Shown here: piece by piece, positions 31,830 through 64,000 of the stretch | Position numbering within the stretch: position 1 is the stretch's first letter | Layout of the letters: every line of letters starts with the position of its first letter | NCBI GenBank assembly: GCA_963696385.1 | Contig: CAVOKF010000005.1 | Location: 1,465,290 to 1,529,289, forward strand | Length of the DNA stretch: 64,000 bases | Origin: an uncultured delta proteobacterium | GTDB lineage: Bacteria; Myxococcota_A; Polyangia; Polyangiales; Polyangiaceae | Direction of reading: 5' to 3' | Notes under the pieces: generated by a model | Database searches by the model: none | Seen by the model: only the letters and a program-made list of their open reading frames with translations | What the model was told of the DNA's origin: nothing | Made by a program: the position numbers and the translations under genes

Positions 31830-32090
31830 CTACGCGACACGCGTGCGCGGCGGGAACGCTCGCCCGTCATTCCCTGACGCATGCCGAAGTTCGACCTGTC
31901 GCGACGCGCGCCAGGCCGCCTCATTGGCTTGCGCGGCAAGCGCACCCGGGTTGGCCTCGAGGATCCGACGCGTCGCTTCGTCAGGATTGAAAAAGTCCGC
32001 GCCCGCGGCAATGGCCATTTCGCCGAGCACGCTGCTCTTGCCCGCTCCGTTGGTTCCTGCGAGGACGTAGATGCAGGCCCTTTCAGGCAT
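31830..32090 (-). pseudogene. Truncated zeta-toxin-like P-loop ATPase/kinase
   Basis: YVLAGTNGAGKSS Walker A and FFNPDE; family-like sequence ends after ~60 aa. Confidence 0.7.
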
Positions 32091-32094
32091 GCTT

Positions 32095-32289
32095 CTATCG
32101 TGCGGCTACGCCCGCCACAGCCGCGGCTCCGAATTCCTCGGGCGTGGCCTCAAACGCCTTCTTCATTCCCGCCCGCGCCCGGGGGGTCTGCATCCGGACG
32201 AACATGGTGTCGAAATCGGCGCTCAACGTGTCGAGCGTGCGCGTGCGTCGAGCAAAAAACGCTCGGAAATCGTCAAACGAGATCAGGAC
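32095..32289 (-). pseudogene. Phd/YefM-family antitoxin, 3' half (split by IS21-like element)
   Basis: Joins in frame to 36777-36951 after removing the IS and one TCAGGAC copy: ..NKQNTPKAVL/ISFDDF.. Confidence 0.85.
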
Positions 32290-32524
32290 CTTCAGCGGCG
32301 CCTTTAGAGTGATCCACTTCTGGCGACCGAAGTGATCCACCCGTCGCCGGGGTCGGGGTGGCGGCAGCGGCGGGATCGTGACCCACCCCTTGCTATCGGA
32401 AAGGGCGCGCGTCAGGGCCAGTGGCTCACCCCGAGGTGCTCGGCCGGGCGAAGGGGGGAACCGCCAAGACGCCGGTAGGACTCGCGAGCGCTCGGGCTCG
32501 CGGCTCAGCGTGGGAGTCCGGCTA

Positions 32525-32839
32525 TCAGAAGGAGTTGTCGTCCGTGGGATCGTGCGCGGGTGGCATTGCCGCTTCGCGGACGGCGTGGCGGTAGCGCCAG
32601 AGCGTTTCGCGCAAGGTGGCGGCCCTGCGGCAGATCGTGTGGGCGAGGAAGACGACAGGGCCTTGGTCGCGTGGCCTATGGAAGTCGTCGATGAGCGTCT
32701 GGTGCTCGGCCAAGAGCGCGTCGGCAGCGAGGTCGAGCGCGTGTTCGAGCAGAATGATGGAGGCGAGCTCCGGCGCGACGACGAGGTCCGGGACGCGGGG
32801 CGGAGGCGGAGCGGGTGGAACGCGGCGCGGGCGCCTCAC
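32525..32839 (-). CDS. Small hypothetical protein downstream of istB (IS passenger)
   Basis: GTG overlaps istB stop; 104 aa; conserved in copy 2. Confidence 0.65.
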   Translation of the reverse strand: MRRPRRVPPAPPPPRVPDLVVAPELASIILLEHALDLAADALLAEHQTLIDDFHRPRDQGPVVFLAHTICRRAATLRETLWRYRHAVREAAMPPAHDPTDDNSF

Positions 32840-33693
32840 GGCGCCGTCGCCCGAGTGGGTGCGACCGGCTTGCCGGCACGCTCGGCAGCGACGTGCTGGC
32901 GGTAGCTCGGTCCGTCGATGTCGATACGAATGGCATGCATGGCGAGCCGATCGAGAATGGCGGCGGCGACGGTCGCGTCTCCCAGGTAGCGTCCCCACTG
33001 GCGCAAATCGATATTGGAGGTGACCGCGGTCGAGAGCTTGCCGTGCCTGCGATCGACGAGGTTGAACAGAGTATGGGCGGCGGTGGGCTCGTCGTCGCGC
33101 TGGCGCCCCAGGCCGACGTCGTCGATGACGAGCAGGTCGGGTCGTGCCCAGGCCTTCAGGCGTCGGGGGTAGGTGCCGTCGGCGAGGCCGGCGTGCAGGT
33201 CGGCGAGCAGGTCGACGCACCGCGCGTAGCGCAGGGAGATGCCCTGCACGCAGGCGCGCAGGGAGAGAGCCTTGAGGATGTGACTCTTGCCGGTGCCGCT
33301 CTTTCCCGTGATGACCAGGTCGTCGTGGCGCCTGACGAAGTCGAGGCGGGCGAGCTCCAGCACGAGGCTCTTGTCGATCGAGGGTTGGAAGTCCCAGTCG
33401 AAGGCCTCGAGTGTCTTTCGCTCGACCAGGCCGCTGACCCGGATACGCCGGTCCAGGCGTGCGGCCGACTTGTGATCGACCTCAGCGGCCAGGACGTGCT
33501 CGAGCAGGGCGGTGTGTCCGGGTCGCTCGCGGGTGGCCCACGCGAGCCAGTCGTCGAGCGTGGAGAGCGTATGGGAGAGGCCCAAGTAGCCGAGGTGCCG
33601 GCGCAGGCGATCGATCACCACGACGGCCTCGTCAGAGGCCGGGCCGGTCACCCGGTCATTGGAGTCTGGTTTATCCGTTTTGGTCTTGGCCAT
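32836..33693 (-). CDS. istB: IstB AAA+ ATPase (IS21 helper)
   Basis: LEAFDWDFQP, GKSGTGKSH Walker A, LLVIDDVG Walker B, VTSN, AAILDRL, GPSYR. Confidence 0.93.
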   Translation of the reverse strand: MAKTKTDKPDSNDRVTGPASDEAVVVIDRLRRHLGYLGLSHTLSTLDDWLAWATRERPGHTALLEHVLAAEVDHKSAARLDRRIRVSGLVERKTLEAFDWDFQPSIDKSLVLELARLDFVRRHDDLVITGKSGTGKSHILKALSLRACVQGISLRYARCVDLLADLHAGLADGTYPRRLKAWARPDLLVIDDVGLGRQRDDEPTAAHTLFNLVDRRHGKLSTAVTSNIDLRQWGRYLGDATVAAAILDRLAMHAIRIDIDGPSYRQHVAAERAGKPVAPTRATAP

Positions 33694-35246
33694 CGGCGGT
33701 CTCCACGGGGCGGCGGGTGGCGAGCGGCAGAGCGTCGTACTCGGCCAGATCGCGGGGGCGTGTGACGACGGGACCGAGCGCGTCATCGATGCGCTTGGCG
33801 GTGTCTTCGGCGACGTACTCGTCGAGGGTCCGGGGCGGAGCGCGTCGGGCGAGGATGCGCTCGACCGAGGCCGCGTCGAGCGCGCCGAACCGAACGGCGT
33901 GCGCGAGGGCGGCGTCGACGTCGGCGCTGTCGTAGCGGGCACGCAAGAGCAGGATCTGCCGGGCGTGGTGGGTCCAGACACGGGTCACGTGGGCGCCCGA
34001 GAGCTGGAGCAGGAACGCGGCGGCCCCGTCGCCCATCTGCTCGAAGGTGGCGCGCAGCTTGTCGACGTCGATGGGCGACCGGCTCTCTGGGCGAGGATGC
34101 AGCCCGAGCGGATCGATCTTGTCGCCGCGTCCGCGCGGTCGCAGCTCATAGCGCGCCAGGCAAGCGAGATTCGGCCCGTAGACGAACAGCTCCGTCTGCG
34201 TGATGCGCAGCGGCAGGAAGTCGGTCACATGGTCGTACGGCACGGCGTAGCGGTTACCGAGCCATTCGACGTACCCGTCGATGCTGCAGAGTCGATACGT
34301 GACCCGGGCGGTGTCGTACGGATGCTTGGGCAGCGGCCGCAGATGAGGCGCCTCGTCGCGAAACCGATCGAGGGCGGACAGCCCGTGACGCTTGCGCGGG
34401 TCGACGACGCGAACGAGCCAGTCGGCGAGCTGCGCGGCGAAGTCGTCGCGATCGCGGAAATGAGCGGCCGTTGAGAAACGATCGCTCGTGCTCCCAGAAG
34501 CTGCGTTCGACGCGCGGCTTGGCGTTGGGTTTTCCTCGCACGGCGGCGGGCTGAATGCCGTAGTGCGCGGCAAAGGCGAGATACCGAGGATTGTAGATGG
34601 GCTGGTGGCCTTCCCACCGGAGCACGACGGGCTTTTGGCTGTCGTACTTGCAGCCCGCGGCGCAGCCGCCGAAGCGCGCGAAGGCGCGCTCGTGGCCGTC
34701 CATGAGCGCGAACAAGTCCGGCGAGCCGAAGACGTCGAAGGACTTGCGCTTCGAATAGACCAGGACATACGAGAACAGCTGCACAGTCTCGGAGAGGCCG
34801 GTCGTGTACGTGAGCGTGTAGGGCGACCAATCGTTTTCGGCCATCTCACCCGGTCCGAACACCGGAGCTTCGAGGCTCGGCGTCGGCTTGGCCGCTGGCC
34901 GCACGCGCCGCATCTGCTTCTTGACGGCGGTGTAGCCGCCTTGGAATCCCTCGTCCTTGAGGATCTCCAGCACGCGCTGCGCGGTGATGTCCGGGTAGCG
35001 CGCGAGCAACTCGCTCACGCGACCCTGGTAGGCGTCGATCTTGCGGGAACGCGGCGCGCGCACGGGCGCAGCGGCCAGCGCGGCGTGCCCGTCGTCGCGC
35101 TCGCGACCGTGGGTCCGAAGGATCTTCTTGATCGTGTTCCGACTGACCCCCAGCGCCCGCGTGATGGCGCGCCGGCTCATCCCCTGGGCCGTCAACACGA
35201 CGACCTGGTGGATCAATTCCTCGCGAGAGCGCCAGTGCACCGTCAT
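33671..35246 (-). pseudogene. istA: IstA DDE transposase with +1 frameshift near 34457
   Basis: N-terminal HTH, PGEMAENDW, YDSQK, KPRVER; one extra G (ATCGCGGAAATG vs ATCGCGAAATG in copy 2). Confidence 0.88.
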
Positions 35247-36133
35247 GCCCTGCTCGCTCTCTCGGTCACGGCGGTGATCGTTTTCATCAGGCCGCCCAAC
35301 ACGCCATGGAGGTTGCTGAGATCGGGGCCCACGACGTCGGCGGCGGGTCCCAACGCGGCGAGCGGCATCCCGGCCAAACAGGCCTGAAGTCGCCCCGCGC
35401 TCCGTCGAATGGTCGTCACGTCGAGCGCGATCGTCTCGGCGATGCTCCTTGCCATGCGTGGGCGGCCGCGGCGCGCAGGCCGACCCCCGTCGCGCCAGCG
35501 CGCCAGCACCGCCTCATGCCCCGGCCCCGAGTCGTCCGCGAGCTCGCGCACCAAGAGGGCCGTCTGCCGCACGGTGAGCCCGCGACGGATGACGACCGCG
35601 GAGACCGCCGGCTGGTTGCCACGTGGCAACGCGCCGACGAGGATCGCTGCCCGCGGCGCGAGCAGCCCGAGTCGAACGTCGGCTTGGACCGACGAATCGA
35701 GCGCTTCGACCAGCATCAGGCGGCGACAGACCCAGCTCTTGTGGCAACGAAGCAGCGCAGCGATCGCCCCTTGCGTCACGTGATGCTCTCGATGCAGGGC
35801 GCGCACGATCCACGCCTCCTCGAGCGCGGTGAGCCCGCGGCCAGCGTGCAGCTCGCGCATCTGCACGGTGGCATCGACGGCGCCAAGGTCGGTGACGACG
35901 GCGCGCAGATCGCGAAGGCCCAGCCCTCGCGCGGCGCGTAGCCGCTTGAAGCCGTCGAAGATCTCGACGGCGCCATCCCGCTCGAACGCGCGCACGGCGG
36001 AGAGCTGGCCGTGCTGCTTGAGCGACGCGCGCATGGCGGCCAGCGCGCAGGCGTCGGCGAGGCGCAGCCGCGACAGGCCCTCGCCGAGATCGGCGACGGC
36101 GACGAGGCGCTCGGCTTGAGCAGCGGCGGTCAC
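35243..36133 (-). CDS. ParB/Srx N-terminal domain + HTH protein (IS passenger)
   Basis: SLKQHGQL box I, IFDGFKRLRAA (GxxRxxA) box II, LTALEEA, HTH VTQGAIAALLRCHKSWVCRRL; stop overlaps istA ATG; GTG start inferred. Confidence 0.85.
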   Translation of the reverse strand: MTAAAQAERLVAVADLGEGLSRLRLADACALAAMRASLKQHGQLSAVRAFERDGAVEIFDGFKRLRAARGLGLRDLRAVVTDLGAVDATVQMRELHAGRGLTALEEAWIVRALHREHHVTQGAIAALLRCHKSWVCRRLMLVEALDSSVQADVRLGLLAPRAAILVGALPRGNQPAVSAVVIRRGLTVRQTALLVRELADDSGPGHEAVLARWRDGGRPARRGRPRMARSIAETIALDVTTIRRSAGRLQACLAGMPLAALGPAADVVGPDLSNLHGVLGGLMKTITAVTERASRA

Positions 36134-36156
36134 GGCCGCGAATCCACCACGACTCG

Positions 36157-36627
36157 TTACCCGGCACGAGACCGGCCCGTGACGCTGTCCAGGTCCAGGC
36201 CCGATCGGCAGCCGTTTTCCCCAGCTTCCAGCGCGCAGGGTAGCTCGTGACATGGGCCCACTCTGTCCACTTTGGCGGGCCCAAAAGGGCCGATTTTCCG
36301 CAGAATTCGCCCCAGATCGCGGCGGAGGGTAGCTCGTGACAGGCTCGCGGCCTTGTCCACGATCTGCTGTGCTTTACGCAATAAATCCGCGCTGTTGCCG
36401 TCCGAGGGTAGCTCGTGACATCCGGCCGCCTCGGCGCCGTCCCGGCGCCTTTGCTGGCGTGCGCGCTCGTCGGCCCGCTGCTCGTCCAGGTCGTTGCGCC
36501 GCCTCCGGCGCGCCTGACGGTTGCGGCGCTGGCCGCGGCACCCCTCTCCGCACACAACTTGGTGATCGAGCGCGCTCACGGCAGGTGTGAACCACTTCCG
36601 GCACTCGCTGCATCGACGCCTGGACAT
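36157..36627 (-). CDS. Cys4 Zn-finger-like, Arg-rich hypothetical protein (IS passenger)
   Basis: C-x2-C-x16-C-x3-C then basic helix; frame intact in both copies. Confidence 0.65.
   Translation of the reverse strand: MSRRRCSECRKWFTPAVSALDHQVVCGEGCRGQRRNRQARRRRRNDLDEQRADERARQQRRRDGAEAAGCHELPSDGNSADLLRKAQQIVDKAASLSRATLRRDLGRILRKIGPFGPAKVDRVGPCHELPCALEAGENGCRSGLDLDSVTGRSRAG
36237..36420. repeat. Three perfect 16-bp direct repeats AGGGTAGCTCGTGACA
   Basis: 36237-36252, 36326-36341, 36405-36420. Confidence 0.93.
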
Positions 36628-36776
36628 CGACGCCAGCGTCCGGCGAGACGCCCTCGATCGCGCGTTCCACGGCGCCCCCCTGGATCACGATCCCGCCGCC
36701 CGCGGCCGCCCCTTCAGGCCGTGCCGTGGATCACGATCCCGCCGTGCAGTGGATCACGACGAGGGCGCCGCTGAAG

Positions 36777-36951
36777 TCAGGACGGCCTTGGGCGTGTTCT
36801 GCTTGTTGATGACGACGAAGCCGCGGCGCGCGGTCGTGTCGAGCAGGTCTGCGAAGGCATTGCGCGCGTCGGTCGCGGACACCTCCGTGAACTCCACCTG
36901 CCTCGAGGAGACGTTTCGCGACGTGGCGACCGCCTGGCGCACCTCGGACAT
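36777..36951 (-). pseudogene. Phd/YefM-family antitoxin, 5' half
   Basis: VSATDARNAFADLLD..VVINKQNTPKAVL Phd signature; cut at IS end; start uncertain. Confidence 0.85.
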
Positions 36952-37162
36952 CTGACGGTACAACGCGATGGCACGAGCGACCGTCTCCTCAAGAAGGGCG
37001 GGCTCCGGCGAGCGTTTCAGTTCGAAGAGCATCCAGTCCTGCTTGCCGCGTCGGCGCGTCCGGCATGCCGCTGCCCCAGCGGGGGGTGGCACAAGTCATT
37101 GGGCTACGGTCCCAGCCCGAACATGCGCTTCAGGCCCTTGCGGCGTCCCGCACGGCTGGCGC

Positions 37163-37516
37163 CTAACCGAACGTCTTCCCGTCGAAGCCCCAGAACGACG
37201 CCGGCACGTCCGCGAACACGACGTATGTGCGGTTCGTCGGCACTCCGAGCGCGTCGTGCACGAGCTTGCAGACGGCCTCGGTCAACCGCTTGGCGCGGTC
37301 ACCGCCCAGTCCGCCGATGCTTTTGACCTCGACGAGGCAAGAGGCCTCGGGCGAGCCCGCGAACGTCATTCGGCTGCGCGGTACGAGGCACGTCATCACG
37401 TAGCTCTCGGGCTTCCCGAGGAGGCGTGCGGTTGTCGAAGACAAATCCCGCAAGAGCGCCGTCGCCTTCTCGTCGGCAAGCGGCTCGGCGGACGCGTACA
37501 CGGTAACGAGCGGCAT
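37163..37516 (-). CDS. MIF-like phenylpyruvate tautomerase family protein
   Basis: Catalytic Pro1 (MPLV), LGKPESYVM, KSIGG, FWGFDGKTFG. Confidence 0.88.
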   Translation of the reverse strand: MPLVTVYASAEPLADEKATALLRDLSSTTARLLGKPESYVMTCLVPRSRMTFAGSPEASCLVEVKSIGGLGGDRAKRLTEAVCKLVHDALGVPTNRTYVVFADVPASFWGFDGKTFG

Positions 37517-59512: not shown

Positions 59513-59748
59513 CTTCAGCGGCGCCTTTGGAGTGATCCACTTCGGGTCACCGAAGTGATCCACCCGTCGCGGGGATCGGGGTGTCAGCGGCGGCGGGATC
59601 GTGACCCACCCCTTGCTATCGGAAAGGGCGCGCGTCAGGGCCGGTGGCTCGCACCCGAGATGCTCGGCCGGGCGAAGGGGGGAACCGCCAAGACGCCGGT
59701 AGGACTCGCGAGCGCTCGGGCCCGCGGCTCAGTGCGGGAGTCCGGCTA

Positions 59749-60063
59749 TCAGAAGGTGTTGTCGTCGGTGGGATCGTGCGCGGGTGGCATCGCCGCTTCG
59801 CGGACGGCGTGGCGGTAGCGCCAGAGCGTTTCGCGCAAGGTGGCGGCCCTGCGGCAGATCGTGTGGGCGAGGAAGACGACAGGGCCTTGATCGCGTGGCC
59901 TATGGAAGTCGTCGATGAGCGTCTGGTGCTCGGCCAAGAGCGCGTCGGCAGCGAGGTCGAGCGCGTGTTCGAGCAGAATGATGGAGGCGAGCTCCGGCGC
60001 GACGACGAGGTCCGGGACGCGGGGCGGAGGCGGAGCGGGTGGAACGCGGCGCGTGCGCTTCAC
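59749..60063 (-). CDS. Small hypothetical protein downstream of istB (copy 2)
   Basis: Homolog of 32525-32839. Confidence 0.65.
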   Translation of the reverse strand: MKRTRRVPPAPPPPRVPDLVVAPELASIILLEHALDLAADALLAEHQTLIDDFHRPRDQGPVVFLAHTICRRAATLRETLWRYRHAVREAAMPPAHDPTDDNTF

Positions 60064-60923
60064 GGCGCCGTGGCCTGAGTGGGTGCGACCGGCTTGCCGG
60101 CACGCTCGGCGGCGACGTGCTGGCGGTAGCTCGGTCCGTCGATGTCGATGCGAATGGCATGCATGGCGAGCCGATCGAGAATGGCGGCGGCGACGGTCGC
60201 GTCTCCCAGGTAGCGTCCCCACTGGCGCAAATCGATATTGGAGGTGACCGCGGTCGAGAGCTTGCCGTGCCTGCGATCGACGAGGTTGAAGAGAGTATGG
60301 GCGGCGGTGGGCTCGTCGTCGCGCTGGCGCACCTGCCCCAGGCCGACGTCGTCGATGACGAGCAGGTCGGGTCGTGCCCAGGCCTTCAGGCGTCGGGGGT
60401 AGGTGCCGTCGGCGAGGCCGGCGTGCAGGTCGGCGAGCAGGTCGACGCACCGCGCGTAGCGCAGGGAGATGCCCTGCACGCAGGCGCGCAGGGAGAGGGC
60501 CTTGAGGATGTGACTCTTGCCGGTGCCGCTCTTTCCCGTGATGACCAGGTCGTCGTGGCGCCTGACGAAGTCGAGGCGGGCGAGCTCCAGCACGAGGCTC
60601 TTGTCGATCGAGGGTTGAAAGTCCCAGTCGAAGGCCTCGAGTGTCTTTTGCTCGACCAGGCCGCTGACCCGGATACGCCGGTCCAGGCGTGCGGCCGACT
60701 TGTGATCGACCTCAGCGGCCAGGACGTGCTCGAGCAGGGCGGTGTGTCCGGGTCGCTCGCGGGTGGCCCACGCGAGCCAGTCGTCGAGCGTGGAGAGCGT
60801 ATGGGAGAGGCCCAAGTAGCCGAGGTGCCGGCGCAGGCGCTCGATCACCACGACGGCCTCGTCGGAGGCCGGGCCGGTCACCCGGTCATTCGAGTCTGAT
60901 TTATCCGTTTTGGTCTTGGCCAT
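60060..60923 (-). CDS. istB: IstB AAA+ ATPase
   Basis: Walker A/B; two residues longer than copy 1 (GLGQVRQRD). Confidence 0.93.
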   Translation of the reverse strand: MAKTKTDKSDSNDRVTGPASDEAVVVIERLRRHLGYLGLSHTLSTLDDWLAWATRERPGHTALLEHVLAAEVDHKSAARLDRRIRVSGLVEQKTLEAFDWDFQPSIDKSLVLELARLDFVRRHDDLVITGKSGTGKSHILKALSLRACVQGISLRYARCVDLLADLHAGLADGTYPRRLKAWARPDLLVIDDVGLGQVRQRDDEPTAAHTLFNLVDRRHGKLSTAVTSNIDLRQWGRYLGDATVAAAILDRLAMHAIRIDIDGPSYRQHVAAERAGKPVAPTQATAP

Positions 60924-62475
60924 CGGCGGTCTCCACGGGGCGGTGGGTGGCGAGCGGCAGAGCGTCGTACTCGGCCAGATCGCGGGGGCGTGTGACGACG
61001 GGACCGAGCGCGTCATCGATGCGCTTGGCGGTGTCTTCGGCGACGTACTCGTCGAGGGTCCGGGGCGGAGCGCGTTGGGCAAGGATGCGTTCGACAGAGG
61101 CCGCGTCGAGCGCGCCGAACCGAACGGCGTGCGCGAGGGCGGCGTCGACGTCGGCGCTGTCGTAGCGGGCACGCAAGACCAGGATCTGCCGGGCGTGGTG
61201 GGTCCAGACACGGGTCACGTGGGCGCCCGAGAGCTGGAGCAGGAACGCGGCGGCCCCGTCGCCCATCTGCTCGAAGGTGGCGCGCAGCTTGTCGACGTCG
61301 ATGGGCGACCGGCTCTCTGGGCGAGGATGCAGCCCGAGCGGGTCGATCTTGTCGCCGCGTCCGCGCGGTCGCAGCTCATAGCGCGCCAGGCAAGCGAGAT
61401 TCGGCCCGTAGACGAACAGCTCCGTCTGCGTGATGCGCAGCGGCAGGAAGTCGGTCACATGGTCGTACGGCACGGCGTAGCGGTTACCGAGCCATTCGAC
61501 GTACCCGTCGATGCTGCAGAGTCGATACGTGACCCGGGCGGTGTCGTACGGATGCTTGGGCAGCGGCCGCAGGTGAGGCGCCTCGTCGCGAAACCGATCG
61601 AGGGCGGACAGCCCGTGACGCTTGCGCGGGTCGACGACGCGAACGAGCCAGTCGGCGAGCTGCGCGGCGAAGTCGTCGCGATCGCGAAATGAGCGGCCGT
61701 TGAGAAACGACCGCTCGTGCTCCCAGAAGCTGCGCTCGACGCGCGGCTTGGCGTTGGGTTTTCCTCGCACGGCGGCGGGCTGAATGCCGTAGTGCGCGGC
61801 AAAGGCGAGATACCGAGGATTGTAGATGGGCTGGTGGCCTTCCCACCGGAGCACGACGGGCTTCTGGCTGTCGTACTTGCAGCCCGCGGCGCAGCCGCCG
61901 AAACGCGCGAAGGCGCGCTCGTGGCCGTCCATGAGCGCGAACAAGTCCGGCGAGCCGAAGACGTCGAAGGACTTGCGCTTCGAATAGACCAGGACATACG
62001 AGAACAGCTGCACAGTCTCGGAGAGGCCGGTCGTATACGTGAGCGTGTAGGGCGACCAATCGTTTTCGGCCATCTCACCCGGTCCGAACACCGGAGCTTC
62101 GAGGCTCGGCGTCGGCTTGGCCGCTGGCCGCACGCGCCGCATCTGCTTCTTGACGGCGGTGTAGCCGCCTTGGAATCCCTCGTCCTTGAGGATCTCCAGC
62201 ACGCGCTGCGCGGTGATGTCCGGGTAGCGCGCGAGCAACTCGCTCACGCGACCCTGGTAGGCGTCGATCTTGCGGGAACGCGGCGCGCGCACGGGCGCAG
62301 CGGCCAGCGCGGCGTGCCCGTCGTCGCGCTCGCGACCGTGGGTCCGAAGGATCTTCTTGATCGTGTTCCGACTGACCCCCAGCGCCCGCGTGATGGCGCG
62401 CCGGCTCATCCCCTGGGCCGTCAACACGACGACCTGGTGGATCAATTCCTCGCGAGAGCGCCAGTGCACCGTCAT
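60901..62475 (-). CDS. istA: IstA DDE transposase, intact (524 aa)
   Basis: Uninterrupted frame from MTVHWRSREE; IS21 motifs incl. DGYVEWLGNRYAVP. Confidence 0.93.
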   Translation of the reverse strand: MTVHWRSREELIHQVVVLTAQGMSRRAITRALGVSRNTIKKILRTHGRERDDGHAALAAAPVRAPRSRKIDAYQGRVSELLARYPDITAQRVLEILKDEGFQGGYTAVKKQMRRVRPAAKPTPSLEAPVFGPGEMAENDWSPYTLTYTTGLSETVQLFSYVLVYSKRKSFDVFGSPDLFALMDGHERAFARFGGCAAGCKYDSQKPVVLRWEGHQPIYNPRYLAFAAHYGIQPAAVRGKPNAKPRVERSFWEHERSFLNGRSFRDRDDFAAQLADWLVRVVDPRKRHGLSALDRFRDEAPHLRPLPKHPYDTARVTYRLCSIDGYVEWLGNRYAVPYDHVTDFLPLRITQTELFVYGPNLACLARYELRPRGRGDKIDPLGLHPRPESRSPIDVDKLRATFEQMGDGAAAFLLQLSGAHVTRVWTHHARQILVLRARYDSADVDAALAHAVRFGALDAASVERILAQRAPPRTLDEYVAEDTAKRIDDALGPVVTRPRDLAEYDALPLATHRPVETADGQDQNG

Positions 62476-63362
62476 GCCCTGCTCGCTCTCTCGGTCACGG
62501 CGGTGATCGTTTTCATCAGGCCGCCCAGCACGCCATGGAGGTTGCTGAGATCGGGGCCCACGACGTCGGCGGCGGGTCCCAACGCGGCGAGCGGCATCCC
62601 GGCCAAACAGGCTTGAAGTCGCCCCGCGCTCCGTCGAAGGGTCGTCACGTCGAGCGCGATCGTCTCGGCGATGCTCCTTGCCGTGCGTGGGCGGCCGCGA
62701 CGCGCAGGCCGACCCCCGTCGCGCCAGCGCACCAGCACCGCCTCGTGCCCCGGCCCCGAGTCGTCCGCGAGCTCGCGCACCAAGAGGGCCGTCTGCCGCA
62801 CGGTGAGCCCGCGACGGATGACGACCGCGGAGACCGCCGGCTGGTTGCCACGTGGCAACGCGCCGACGAGGATCGCTGCCCGCGGTGCGAGCAGCCCGAG
62901 TCGAACGTCGGCTTGGACCGACGAATCGAGCGCTTCGACCAGCATCAGGCGGCGACAGACCCAGCTCTTGTGGCAACGAAGCAGCGCAGCGATCGCCCCT
63001 TGCGTCACGTGATGCTCTCGATGCAGGGCGCGCACGATCCACGCCTCCTCGAGCGCGGTGAGCCCGCGGCCAGCGTGCAGCTCGCGCATCTGCACGGTGG
63101 CATCGACGGCGCCAAGGTCGGTGACGACGGCGCGCAGATCGCGAAGGCCCAGCCCTCGCGCGGCGCGTAGCCGCTTGAAGCCGTCGAAGATCTCGACGGC
63201 GCCATCCCGCTCGAACGCGCGCACGGCGGAGAGCTGGCCGTGCTGCTTGAGCGACGCGCGCATGGCGGCCAGCGCGCAGGCGTCGGCGAGGCGCAGCCGC
63301 GACAGGCCCTCGCCGAGATCGGCGACGGCGACGAGGCGCTCGGCTTGAGCAGCGGCGGTCAC
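62472..63362 (-). CDS. ParB/Srx N-terminal domain + HTH protein (copy 2)
   Basis: Homolog of 35243-36133. Confidence 0.85.
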   Translation of the reverse strand: MTAAAQAERLVAVADLGEGLSRLRLADACALAAMRASLKQHGQLSAVRAFERDGAVEIFDGFKRLRAARGLGLRDLRAVVTDLGAVDATVQMRELHAGRGLTALEEAWIVRALHREHHVTQGAIAALLRCHKSWVCRRLMLVEALDSSVQADVRLGLLAPRAAILVGALPRGNQPAVSAVVIRRGLTVRQTALLVRELADDSGPGHEAVLVRWRDGGRPARRGRPRTARSIAETIALDVTTLRRSAGRLQACLAGMPLAALGPAADVVGPDLSNLHGVLGGLMKTITAVTERASRA

Positions 63363-63385
63363 GGCCGCGAATCCACCACGACTCG

Positions 63386-63856
63386 TCACCCGGCACGAGA
63401 CCGGCCCGTGACGCTGTCCAGGTCCAGGCCCGATCGGCAGCCGTTTTCCCCAGCCTCCAGCGCGCAGGGTAGCTCGTGACATGGGCCCACTCTGTCCACT
63501 TTGGCGGGCCCAAAAGGGCCGATTTTCCGCAGAATTCGCCCCAGATCGCGGCGGAGGGTAGCTCGTGACAGGCTCGCGGCCTTGTCCACGATCTGCTGTA
63601 CTTTACGCAATAAATCCACGCTGTTGCCGTCCGAGGGTAGCTCGTGACATCCGGCTGCCTTGCCGCCGTCCCGGCGCCTTTGCTGGCGTGCGCGCTCGTC
63701 GGCCCGCTGCTCGTCCAGGTCGTTGCGCCGCCTCCGGCGCGCCTGACGGTTGCGGCGCTGGCCGCGGCACCCCTCTCCGCACACAACTTGGTGATCGAGC
63801 GCGCTCACGGCAGGTGTGAACCACTTCCGGCACTCGCTGCATCGACGCCTGGACAT
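63386..63856 (-). CDS. Cys4 Zn-finger-like hypothetical protein (copy 2)
   Basis: Homolog of 36157-36627. Confidence 0.65.
   Translation of the reverse strand: MSRRRCSECRKWFTPAVSALDHQVVCGEGCRGQRRNRQARRRRRNDLDEQRADERARQQRRRDGGKAAGCHELPSDGNSVDLLRKVQQIVDKAASLSRATLRRDLGRILRKIGPFGPAKVDRVGPCHELPCALEAGENGCRSGLDLDSVTGRSRAG
63466..63649. repeat. Three perfect 16-bp direct repeats AGGGTAGCTCGTGACA (copy 2)
   Basis: 63466-63481, 63555-63570, 63634-63649. Confidence 0.93.
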
Positions 63857-64000
63857 CGACGCCAGCGTCCGGCGAGGCGCCCTCGATCGCGCATTCCACG
63901 GCGCCCCCCTGGATCACGATCCCGCCGCCCCCGGCCGCCCCTTCAGGCCGGGCCGTGGATCACGACCCCGCCGTGCGGTGGATCACGACGAGGGCGCCGC

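Follow-up and report, generated by a model that had tools for sequence, protein, structure and literature searches.

The stretch of DNA analysed here (the window) comprises 64,000 nucleotides, the final 64 kb of contig C5 in a 6.9-Mb genome (65.5% G+C) from an uncultured delta proteobacterium whose close relatives are metagenome-assembled genomes (MAGs) of Polyangiaceae/Myxococcota. At positions 32290-36776 lies an IS21-family insertion sequence of 4,487 bp, bounded by 13-bp perfect terminal inverted repeats (IRs). Five open reading frames (ORFs) follow one another on its minus strand: a Zn-ribbon gene, a ParB-like gene, istA, istB and a 104-aa frame termed orf5 (Table 1). All copies of the element start CTTCAGCGGCGCC and finish GGCGCCGCTGAAG, with three subterminal repeats of the GTGATCCAC type at each end. 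Adjacent frames overlap at the parB/istA (ATGA), istA/istB (23 nt) and istB/orf5 (GTGA) junctions, and 23 nt separate the end of the Zn-ribbon gene from the parB start.

An earlier note on this DNA, made from the letters alone, had described a five-gene IS21-like element on one strand between IRs, with overlapping junctions from parB onward. Both points are upheld, the first by the IRs, by a 7-bp duplication abutting both ends, and by profile models. IstA (from copy 2, 524 aa) scores 203 bits against the NCBIfam IS21 model NF033546 (cut-off 160), and IstB scores 214.7 bits against NF038214 (NCBIfam IS21 model; cut-off 200) and 187 bits against PF01695. Because both proteins pass curated IS21 models, the element is by sequence a clade within IS21, and the note's further label of a Mu/Tn7-like subfamily is wrong. 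For orf5, neither a family match in the family-library scans nor a usable protein-atlas match was obtained.

Table 1. Positions of the element's features and neighbours in the 64,000-nt window.
Feature	Position	Strand	Details
P-loop ORF	31830-32090	-	AAA_28/AAA_33-like, weak match
Target-site duplication, left, copy 1	32283..32289	.	TCAGGAC; identical 7 bp abut both ends
3' end (gene orientation)	32290..32386	.	13-bp IR 32290-32302
3'-end subterminal repeats	32309-32317, 32332-32340; 32378-32386		GTGATCCAC (first two); GTGACCCAC (third)
orf5	32525..32839	-	104 aa; GTG overlaps istB stop (GTGA)
istB	32836..33693	-	285 aa from ATG at 33693; copy 1 has 6-nt deletion relative to other copies
istA, copy 1	33671..35246	-	1-nt insertion near 34457; frames 34254-35246 and 33671-34849
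ParB-like gene	35243..36133 (ORF 35243-36253)	-	296 aa from GTG at 36133; ParB N-domain with DGFKRLRA, ParB HTH, C-terminal helical hairpin
Zn-ribbon gene	36157..36627	-	156 aa; CxxC-x16-CxxxC, Arg-rich helix, second helix, disordered tail
Iteron array	36236..36420	-	three direct repeats TGTCACGAGCTACCCT(C/G), gene strand: 36404-36420, 36325-36341, 36236-36252
5' end (gene orientation)	36680..36776	.	13-bp IR 36764-36776
5'-end subterminal repeats	36680-36688, 36726-36734, 36749-36757		(C/G)TGGATCAC
Phd/YefM-type antitoxin ORF	36754-37092	-	matches profile positions 3-42 of 74, then enters IS end
Target-site duplication, right, copy 1	36777..36783	.	TCAGGAC; identical 7 bp abut both ends
MIF/tautomerase-family gene	37163-37516	-	PF01187, 71.7 bits
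Copy 2	59513..64000	-	98.3% identical to copy 1: 67 mismatches, 3 gaps
Copy 2 orf5	~59749-60063	-	
Copy 2 istB	~60060-60923	-	
Copy 2 istA	60901-62475	-	intact
Copy 2 ParB-like gene	62472-63362	-	
Copy 2 Zn-ribbon gene	63386-63856	-	

Where the note had counted two copies, the genome holds about eight, 97-99.2% identical. Six of these are near full length, another lacks 1.3 kb internally, and one more is truncated at a contig start; a 192-bp fragment also occurs. Three copies sit at contig ends, as expected because repeats break assemblies. The second copy in the window had been placed correctly, but its last 5 bp are lost to the contig end, which had been overlooked. Also overlooked was a frameshift in copy 1, where a change of TTTC to TTTCC interrupts istA; the same change is found in copies C7b and C3, four copies are intact, and istA of copy 2 is unbroken. 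Target duplications flank three copies: that of copy 1 measures 7 bp, those of another two genomic copies 8 bp. Two genomic copies have none.

Measured against five related elements, third codon positions change in excess in each of the five ORFs, indicating purifying selection. Ratios of nonsynonymous to synonymous substitution rates (dN/dS), computed against the same five, are 0.08-0.26 for IstB, 0.17-0.38 for IstA, 0.22-0.32 for orf5, 0.27-0.54 for ParB and 0.37-0.61 for the Zn-ribbon protein. Among seven copies within the genome, variable codons divide into synonymous-only and replacement changes as 4:7 (Zn-ribbon), 8:10 (ParB), 15:6 (IstA), 11:6 (IstB) and 7:6 (orf5). The IRs, target duplications, multiple copies and purifying selection on every ORF exclude chance; the element is a real, recently mobile insertion sequence.

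The copy at the contig end G000:C4:1167237-1171704 (G000 being this genome) differs from the others at 43 gap positions, nearly all of them 1-2-nt indels that are probably assembly or consensus error and not biology. Copy 1 itself is inserted in a Phd/YefM-type antitoxin gene and has a short P-loop ORF on its other flank, so that by their sequences the insertion appears to disrupt a toxin-antitoxin-like pair; a MIF/tautomerase-family gene adjoins the site.

Of the two genes that precede istA, the first encodes a protein in which C6, C9, F13, Q23, C26 and C30 are invariant across 17 sequences. Its AlphaFold2 (AF2) model is confident over residues 1-60 (predicted local distance difference test, pLDDT, 94-98), and a Foldseek search of the PDB gave no match at E <= 0.001, just generic small zinc ribbons. 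Protein-atlas matches are to unnamed clusters only, the nearest of which is automatically named after NinG. Assignment as a NinG/Rap nuclease was considered and rejected: the matches, to the NinG/Rap N-terminal part, are weak (Pfam 24.9 bits against a cut-off of 25.4; PHROG 171, E 7e-5) and were read as features common to zinc ribbons.

The second gene encodes the ParB-like protein. Its start was set at the GTG at 36133 from its homologues, of which 1,294 were found, about 296-300 aa long and many on contigs of 4.4-5 kb; the earlier note had recognised this ORF and the Zn-ribbon ORF, but the ParB-like start has moved, and repeats (iterons) within the Zn-ribbon gene had escaped it. The protein passes the ParB helix-turn-helix (HTH) model HTH_ParB PF17762 (32.8 bits, cut-off 22.6) and falls under the cut-off for ParB_N PF02195 (17.2 bits, cut-off 26.3). 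Searches with a 16-member profile match M. xanthus ParB (E 1e-11, residues 24-204), Noc and Spo0J (E up to 3e-6) over the N-domain and HTH. An AF2 model built from 27 sequences (pLDDT 87.8) contains a ParB N-domain, a helical domain for DNA binding and, at the C terminus, a two-helix hairpin (residues 231-295), and Foldseek aligns it with ParB, Noc, KorB and PadC at probability 1.0 (7bnk, 6sdk, 7ng0, 8qa9), with about 25% identity to the ParB and Noc structures across ~195 residues. As modelled, therefore, the protein has a ParB fold.

In the same 27 sequences, which extend down to 25% identity, the invariant residues are L23, R24, G42, Q43, D60, G61, K63, R64, R66, R69, E105, Q150, G156 and N173, together with a SWVxRRL helix. 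The GxxRxxA arginine patch is present as DGFKRLRA, with G61, K63, R64 and R66 among the invariant positions. In ParB, hydrolysis of cytidine triphosphate (CTP) is driven by the Glu of the GERR motif and by the ENLQR box. The Glu, which in M. xanthus ParB is E93 (the position mutated in PDB 7o0n), aligns with F62 and is Phe or, in one clade, Tyr in 27/27 sequences; the ENLQR box aligns with ELHAGRG in the window's clade and with other residues elsewhere, and is not conserved. The label of 'CTPase' given by the earlier note is thus not supported. Because the arginine patch is kept while the equivalents of E93 and ENLQR are missing, the protein may bind nucleotide, but if it binds CTP it probably does so without turnover. 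Two 476-aa proteins (P0122 and P0128) whose C-terminal part matches ParB were entertained as Zn-ribbon-ParB fusions and set aside, since P0122 is a ParB frame run on through the iteron region and neither contains the zinc ribbon.

Source annotations name this protein 'ParB/RepB/Spo0J family partition protein', a name that misleads replicon and plasmid calling in MAGs. In its anatomy, a ParB fold with an HTH and a cis array of specific sites matches a centromere-binding protein, and one could picture a retention device in which the ParB-like protein, seated on a centromere-like array, holds or segregates an excised or tandem intermediate or stabilises the carrier replicon. We regard such a role as improbable. 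No ParA-type ATPase gene is found among the element's ORFs; the ParB_C dimerisation domain (PF23552) has no match in the ParB-like protein, unlike the host's own ParB (G000:C8); the sites are direct repeats rather than palindromes; and the residues that catalyse CTP hydrolysis are not there. Those copies that were examined lie in chromosomal DNA, and a tblastn search of 72,556 plasmid records with the ParB-like protein found none at E <= 1e-15.

The earlier note had suggested that the ParB-like protein is a dedicated transposition component. This is partly supported, in that surveys of its neighbourhood tie the gene to the element. Among 13 ParB-like loci from genome contigs, downstream DNA is visible in 12, and IstA is next in all 12. 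Myxococcota-type loci (ParB 64-99% identical) make up eight of the 13 and show the order Zn-ribbon, ParB, IstA, and in seven of these IstB and orf5 follow; in the eighth (L006) the contig ends within istA. The other five come from Geobacteraceae, Desulfuromonadaceae or Chlorobiaceae MAGs (ParB 36-39% and IstA ~38% identity) and carry a Zn-ribbon gene and ParB, followed by IstA/IstB if the contig is long enough, but no orf5. Across the phylum, 27 of 401 sampled genomes have a ParB-like match at E <= 1e-30; one locus was fetched from 20 of the 26 other matching genomes (six were left out), and IstA is next in 20/20 and IstB present in 19/20, the remaining contig being too short. At the same threshold the clade comprises 103 clusters at 50% identity. 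The ParB-IstA linkage persists to about 28-30% IstA identity.

The note had named, as an outcome that would refute it, that close IstA homologues mostly lack the ParB gene; they do not. Searching from IstA in 61 related genomes (this one and 60 others), with close defined as at least 45% identity, we found 16 close loci in the other genomes. Two of these are fragments of the C-terminal part and another two lose their upstream DNA to a contig end, leaving 12 assessable, and ParB lies directly upstream in 12/12. In this genome it lies upstream of 7/8 assessable IstA loci, the exception being the deletion derivative (G000:C7:1349133-1352323), which has lost ~1.3 kb, so that hardly anything of the Zn-ribbon and ParB-like genes is left, and keeps both ends, an open istA and istB. 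That copy has no target duplication and is therefore uninformative on mobility after the deletion. By comparison, more distant IstA matches (25-33% identity) belong to ordinary istA-istB pairs (a Zn-ribbon or ParB match in 0/6 fetched), with the exception of G048:C8, which carries all four genes. Three loci were examined as possible counter-examples to the linkage and dismissed: L022, beside a relaxase; L031, a host ParB with ParB_C; and L032, a truncated front of the element beside host reductase genes.

In a 21-row tree of IstA, the six rows without ParB all lie to one side of a branch that the Shimodaira-Hasegawa-like approximate likelihood-ratio test (SH-aLRT) supports at 98%, although these six outgroup rows are few and come from a single genus. 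Over 11 elements, the correlation of pairwise identities is 0.96 between ParB and IstA, 0.97 between IstA and IstB and 0.90 between the Zn-ribbon protein and ParB; these values are descriptive because the pairs are non-independent. The congruence of ParB and IstA trees, which the earlier note had proposed to check, is seen only in part: the ParB and Zn-ribbon trees are poorly resolved, but their supported pairs match the IstA tree and no supported conflict appears. The four core genes thus co-diverge and their order is conserved. Lying inside the IRs, co-mobile, coupled to istA, under purifying selection and co-diverged with IstA, the ParB-like gene is no casual passenger, and its linkage with IstA/IstB is old and tight.

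Two side observations concern the distribution of these genes. This genome also contains ordinary IS21-type IstA genes, about 28% identical, at G000:C7:243803-244771, C7:1341777-1342745, C5:737937-738911 and C4:90675-91643; at the one such locus that was fetched (L028), IstB is present and no Zn-ribbon or ParB match was found. Furthermore, loci L011 and L012 carry identical IstA and ParB in MAGs labelled Geobacteraceae and Chlorobiaceae, respectively, reflecting either a very recent transfer or a binning error of a repeat contig.

The iterons are 17 bp long, spaced 79 and 89 bp apart, and lie inside the 3' half of the Zn-ribbon ORF. Neither spacing is divisible by three, so the 17-mer falls in two different frames, translating to CHELPS, LSRATL and CHELPC. 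Iterons occur on one strand only, as direct repeats confined to the array, away from the element ends and unlike the terminal IstA-type repeats. Exact 13-mer cores number 18 in the genome, all within the six copies that hold the array region. Eight close loci have two to three iterons at matching offsets from the parB start, and in seven of them the Zn-ribbon protein is 52-69% identical. Related arrays are found at corresponding positions in the sister subclade (GTCACGCGCCACC; spacing ~79, 78-90 and 61-70 bp), in the Chlorobiaceae/Geobacteraceae clade (GTTCAAGAGGTGAT; 69, 70 and 110 bp) and in a third clade (CGCAAGACGAGAT; 69 and 68-69 bp). Front arrays across the clade hold three to four phased iterons. 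Under a strict rule (at least three copies of an 11-mer with at most one mismatch, at steps of 55-115 bp), arrays were detected upstream of parB in 24/36 loci with at least 300 nt examined, against 0/106 control windows inside istA/istB at these loci; several loci that fail the rule hold more degenerate arrays.

Between subclades, GAGCTACC becomes GCGCCACC in every iteron of an array together, and in one frame the encoded CHELPS turns into CHAPPS; the selected unit is therefore the DNA. The repeats might instead be a peptide repeat of the Zn-ribbon protein, or an RNA signal read by its Arg-rich helix. Their restriction to one strand, the length of that helix and a spacing in clades B and C that is often 69 bp, or 23 codons, would fit such an origin. 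We consider it very improbable, because the 79- and 89-bp spacings of the window's clade put the repeats in different frames, a 70-bp step occurs in clade B and a 68-bp step in clade C, the three iterons change together at the DNA level, and direct reading of the sequence reveals no common hairpin beside them.

Decayed remnants from the second subclade are also present in this genome, at G000:C4:98700-101000 (L030) and G000:C5:730359-730438, with the iteron GTCACGCGCCACC and a spacing of 79, so that a single genome has hosted two iteron specificities.

Because the iteron differs between subclades within the same genus, the putative iteron reader is, on sequence grounds, encoded by the element, leaving the ParB-like and Zn-ribbon proteins as candidates. 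Pointing to ParB, iteron cores are related across clades and the putative recognition helix SWVxRRL is invariant. A Cys-to-Arg change just before this helix co-occurs with an A-to-C change in the iteron, although with three lineages this is a lead only. Pointing to the Zn-ribbon gene are five loci (L039, L041, L045, L047 and L050) whose first gene encodes a different Cys-rich protein (CxxC-x6-CxxCDRGQxYC; 176 aa in L047). No array was detected in any of the five, though ParB, IstA and IstB persist, and the array is therefore tied to the Zn-ribbon gene and not to ParB. In both ParB and IstA, two of them group with the third clade, and arrays are present in the rest of that clade. The element's front thus behaves as a swappable unit.

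A further third-clade locus, L042 (G207:C1, a complete one-contig genome with five identical copies), has an array and a first ORF without the zinc ribbon. Directly upstream of this element is an AAA-type ATPase ORF resembling part of another transposon.

Taken together, these observations describe an active insertion sequence of a deep and widespread IS21 clade in which the IstA DDE transposase and IstB AAA+ helper have become permanently joined to a front module, namely a Zn-ribbon gene with iterons in its 3' half followed by a ParB-like gene that is translationally coupled to istA. Our favoured explanation, to which we assign a probability of roughly 0.45, is that this module is an element-encoded DNA-binding control unit that sets the output of IstA/IstB. 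One or both of its proteins would bind the iterons, which lie directly upstream of the coupled parB-istA-istB(-orf5) block, and the resulting nucleoprotein complex would set the amounts of transposase and helper, by autorepression or as a roadblock to read-through. It would act in the manner of ParB-family regulators such as KorB, and not as a partition system.

Several points weigh against this explanation. The regulatory role is argued from the position of the module and from the behaviour of ParB-family regulators. That no array was detected at the five loci with the Cys-rich first gene separates the array from the ParB-like gene. A promoter scan of a lower-GC relative (L013) found three sigma-70-like sites where 3.5 were expected. 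Within this genome, the codon changes in the Zn-ribbon and ParB-like genes indicate less constraint than in the N-terminal part of IstA (10:2). Loci with 69+69 bp spacing keep all iterons in one frame, which is compatible with a 23-aa protein repeat there. Finally, the tight parB-istA coupling would fit a stoichiometric partner of the transposase equally well.

A different possibility is that the front module belongs to the structure of the transposition machine itself and does not regulate expression. The iterons would serve as an internal enhancer or organising centre and, when bound, would aid synapsis of the ends by IstA or act on IstB for target immunity or target choice. The overlap of the parB stop with the istA start is retained in distant clades, the co-divergence of ParB with IstA is as tight as that of IstA with IstB, and the linkage of ParB and IstA survives at the lowest IstA identities noted above. 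The fixed array geometry, with steps of 69, 79 and 89 bp that lie about one helical turn apart, suggests a phased, wrapped complex, and phage Mu offers an analogy in its internal operator/enhancer. On the other hand, the iterons neither resemble the terminal repeats nor lie near the ends, and the front gene and array have been swapped or lost while ParB, IstA and IstB stay. The deletion derivative keeps its ends, istA and istB without either front gene, but is silent on mobility. We judge a structural role to be a serious but unlikely alternative to the control unit.

Beyond repression, the Zn-ribbon protein, ParB-like protein and phased iterons might form a nucleotide-gated, non-hydrolysing ParB-type complex, nucleated inside the transposon, that physically governs IstA-IstB as a cis-acting assembly or immunity centre. 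This is a speculative and rather doubtful proposal; if true, it would add a new class to the known forms of transposition control and give the ParB fold a new function.

IS21 now serves as a structural model for the control of a transposase by an AAA+ ATPase (PMC11208146, PMC10122671). A term search of the IS21 structure papers PMC11208146 and PMC12486865 finds no mention of ParB or extra genes, and passages of PMC13139386 mention ParB-like domains only among toxin-antitoxin genes. In the full-text literature, a search that did not cover ISfinder and TnCentral, we found no description of a ParB-like gene in an IS21 element; provisionally, then, the front module would be an apparently undescribed control module on the IS21 machine. 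A large natural clade, spanning genomes of this phylum and Chlorobiaceae and Geobacteraceae MAGs, in which the IstA-IstB machine has long been joined to ParB-like and Zn-ribbon proteins and to a phased array would offer a testable additional layer of control on IstA-IstB transposition. For the study of ParB and CTP switches, it provides a family member with the arginine patch and without the hydrolysis residues.

The nearest known system is the canonical IS21 element (IS21, IS5376). The element described here shares with it IstA and IstB proteins that pass the IS21 models, an istA-istB overlap, terminal IRs with several subterminal repeats, and target duplications of 7-8 bp. Canonical elements have two genes in about 2-2.6 kb, and target duplications in the family measure 4-8 bp. 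The present element, in contrast, is 4.49 kb long with five ORFs, placing the Zn-ribbon gene, iterons and ParB-like gene before istA and orf5 after istB. Termini in the family are TG...CA, whereas here, as set by the target duplications, they are CT...AG.

With ParB/Spo0J, Noc and RK2 KorB, the ParB-like protein shares the fold of the N-domain and HTH, the GxxRxxA arginine patch and an array of cis sites, and a KorB-type regulatory role is our working analogy for it. It differs from the ParB CTP switches in having Phe/Tyr at the E93 position, an ENLQR box that is not conserved, and no ParB_C, ParA partner or palindromic site; its gene, moreover, resides inside a transposon, where it is coupled to that of the transposase. 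PadC, a chromosome-segregation adaptor of M. xanthus without the HTH-plus-iteron arrangement, binds CTP without a hydrolysis cycle; this non-cycling state is the one we infer for the ParB-like protein. The two share a ParB/Srx-type N-domain by fold only, at Foldseek rank 33 with 19% identity over 126 columns (PDB 6ryk).

A works-like analogy is provided by the operator/enhancer and repressor of phage Mu. Both systems have an internal array of sites upstream of genes for a DDE transposase and an AAA+ helper, and in both the array could serve regulation and transpososome assembly. Mu uses an internal operator/enhancer, and its transposase is related to IstA. The site-binding proteins of the two systems, by contrast, have no relation in sequence or fold, and a contact between IstA and the iterons is hypothetical here.

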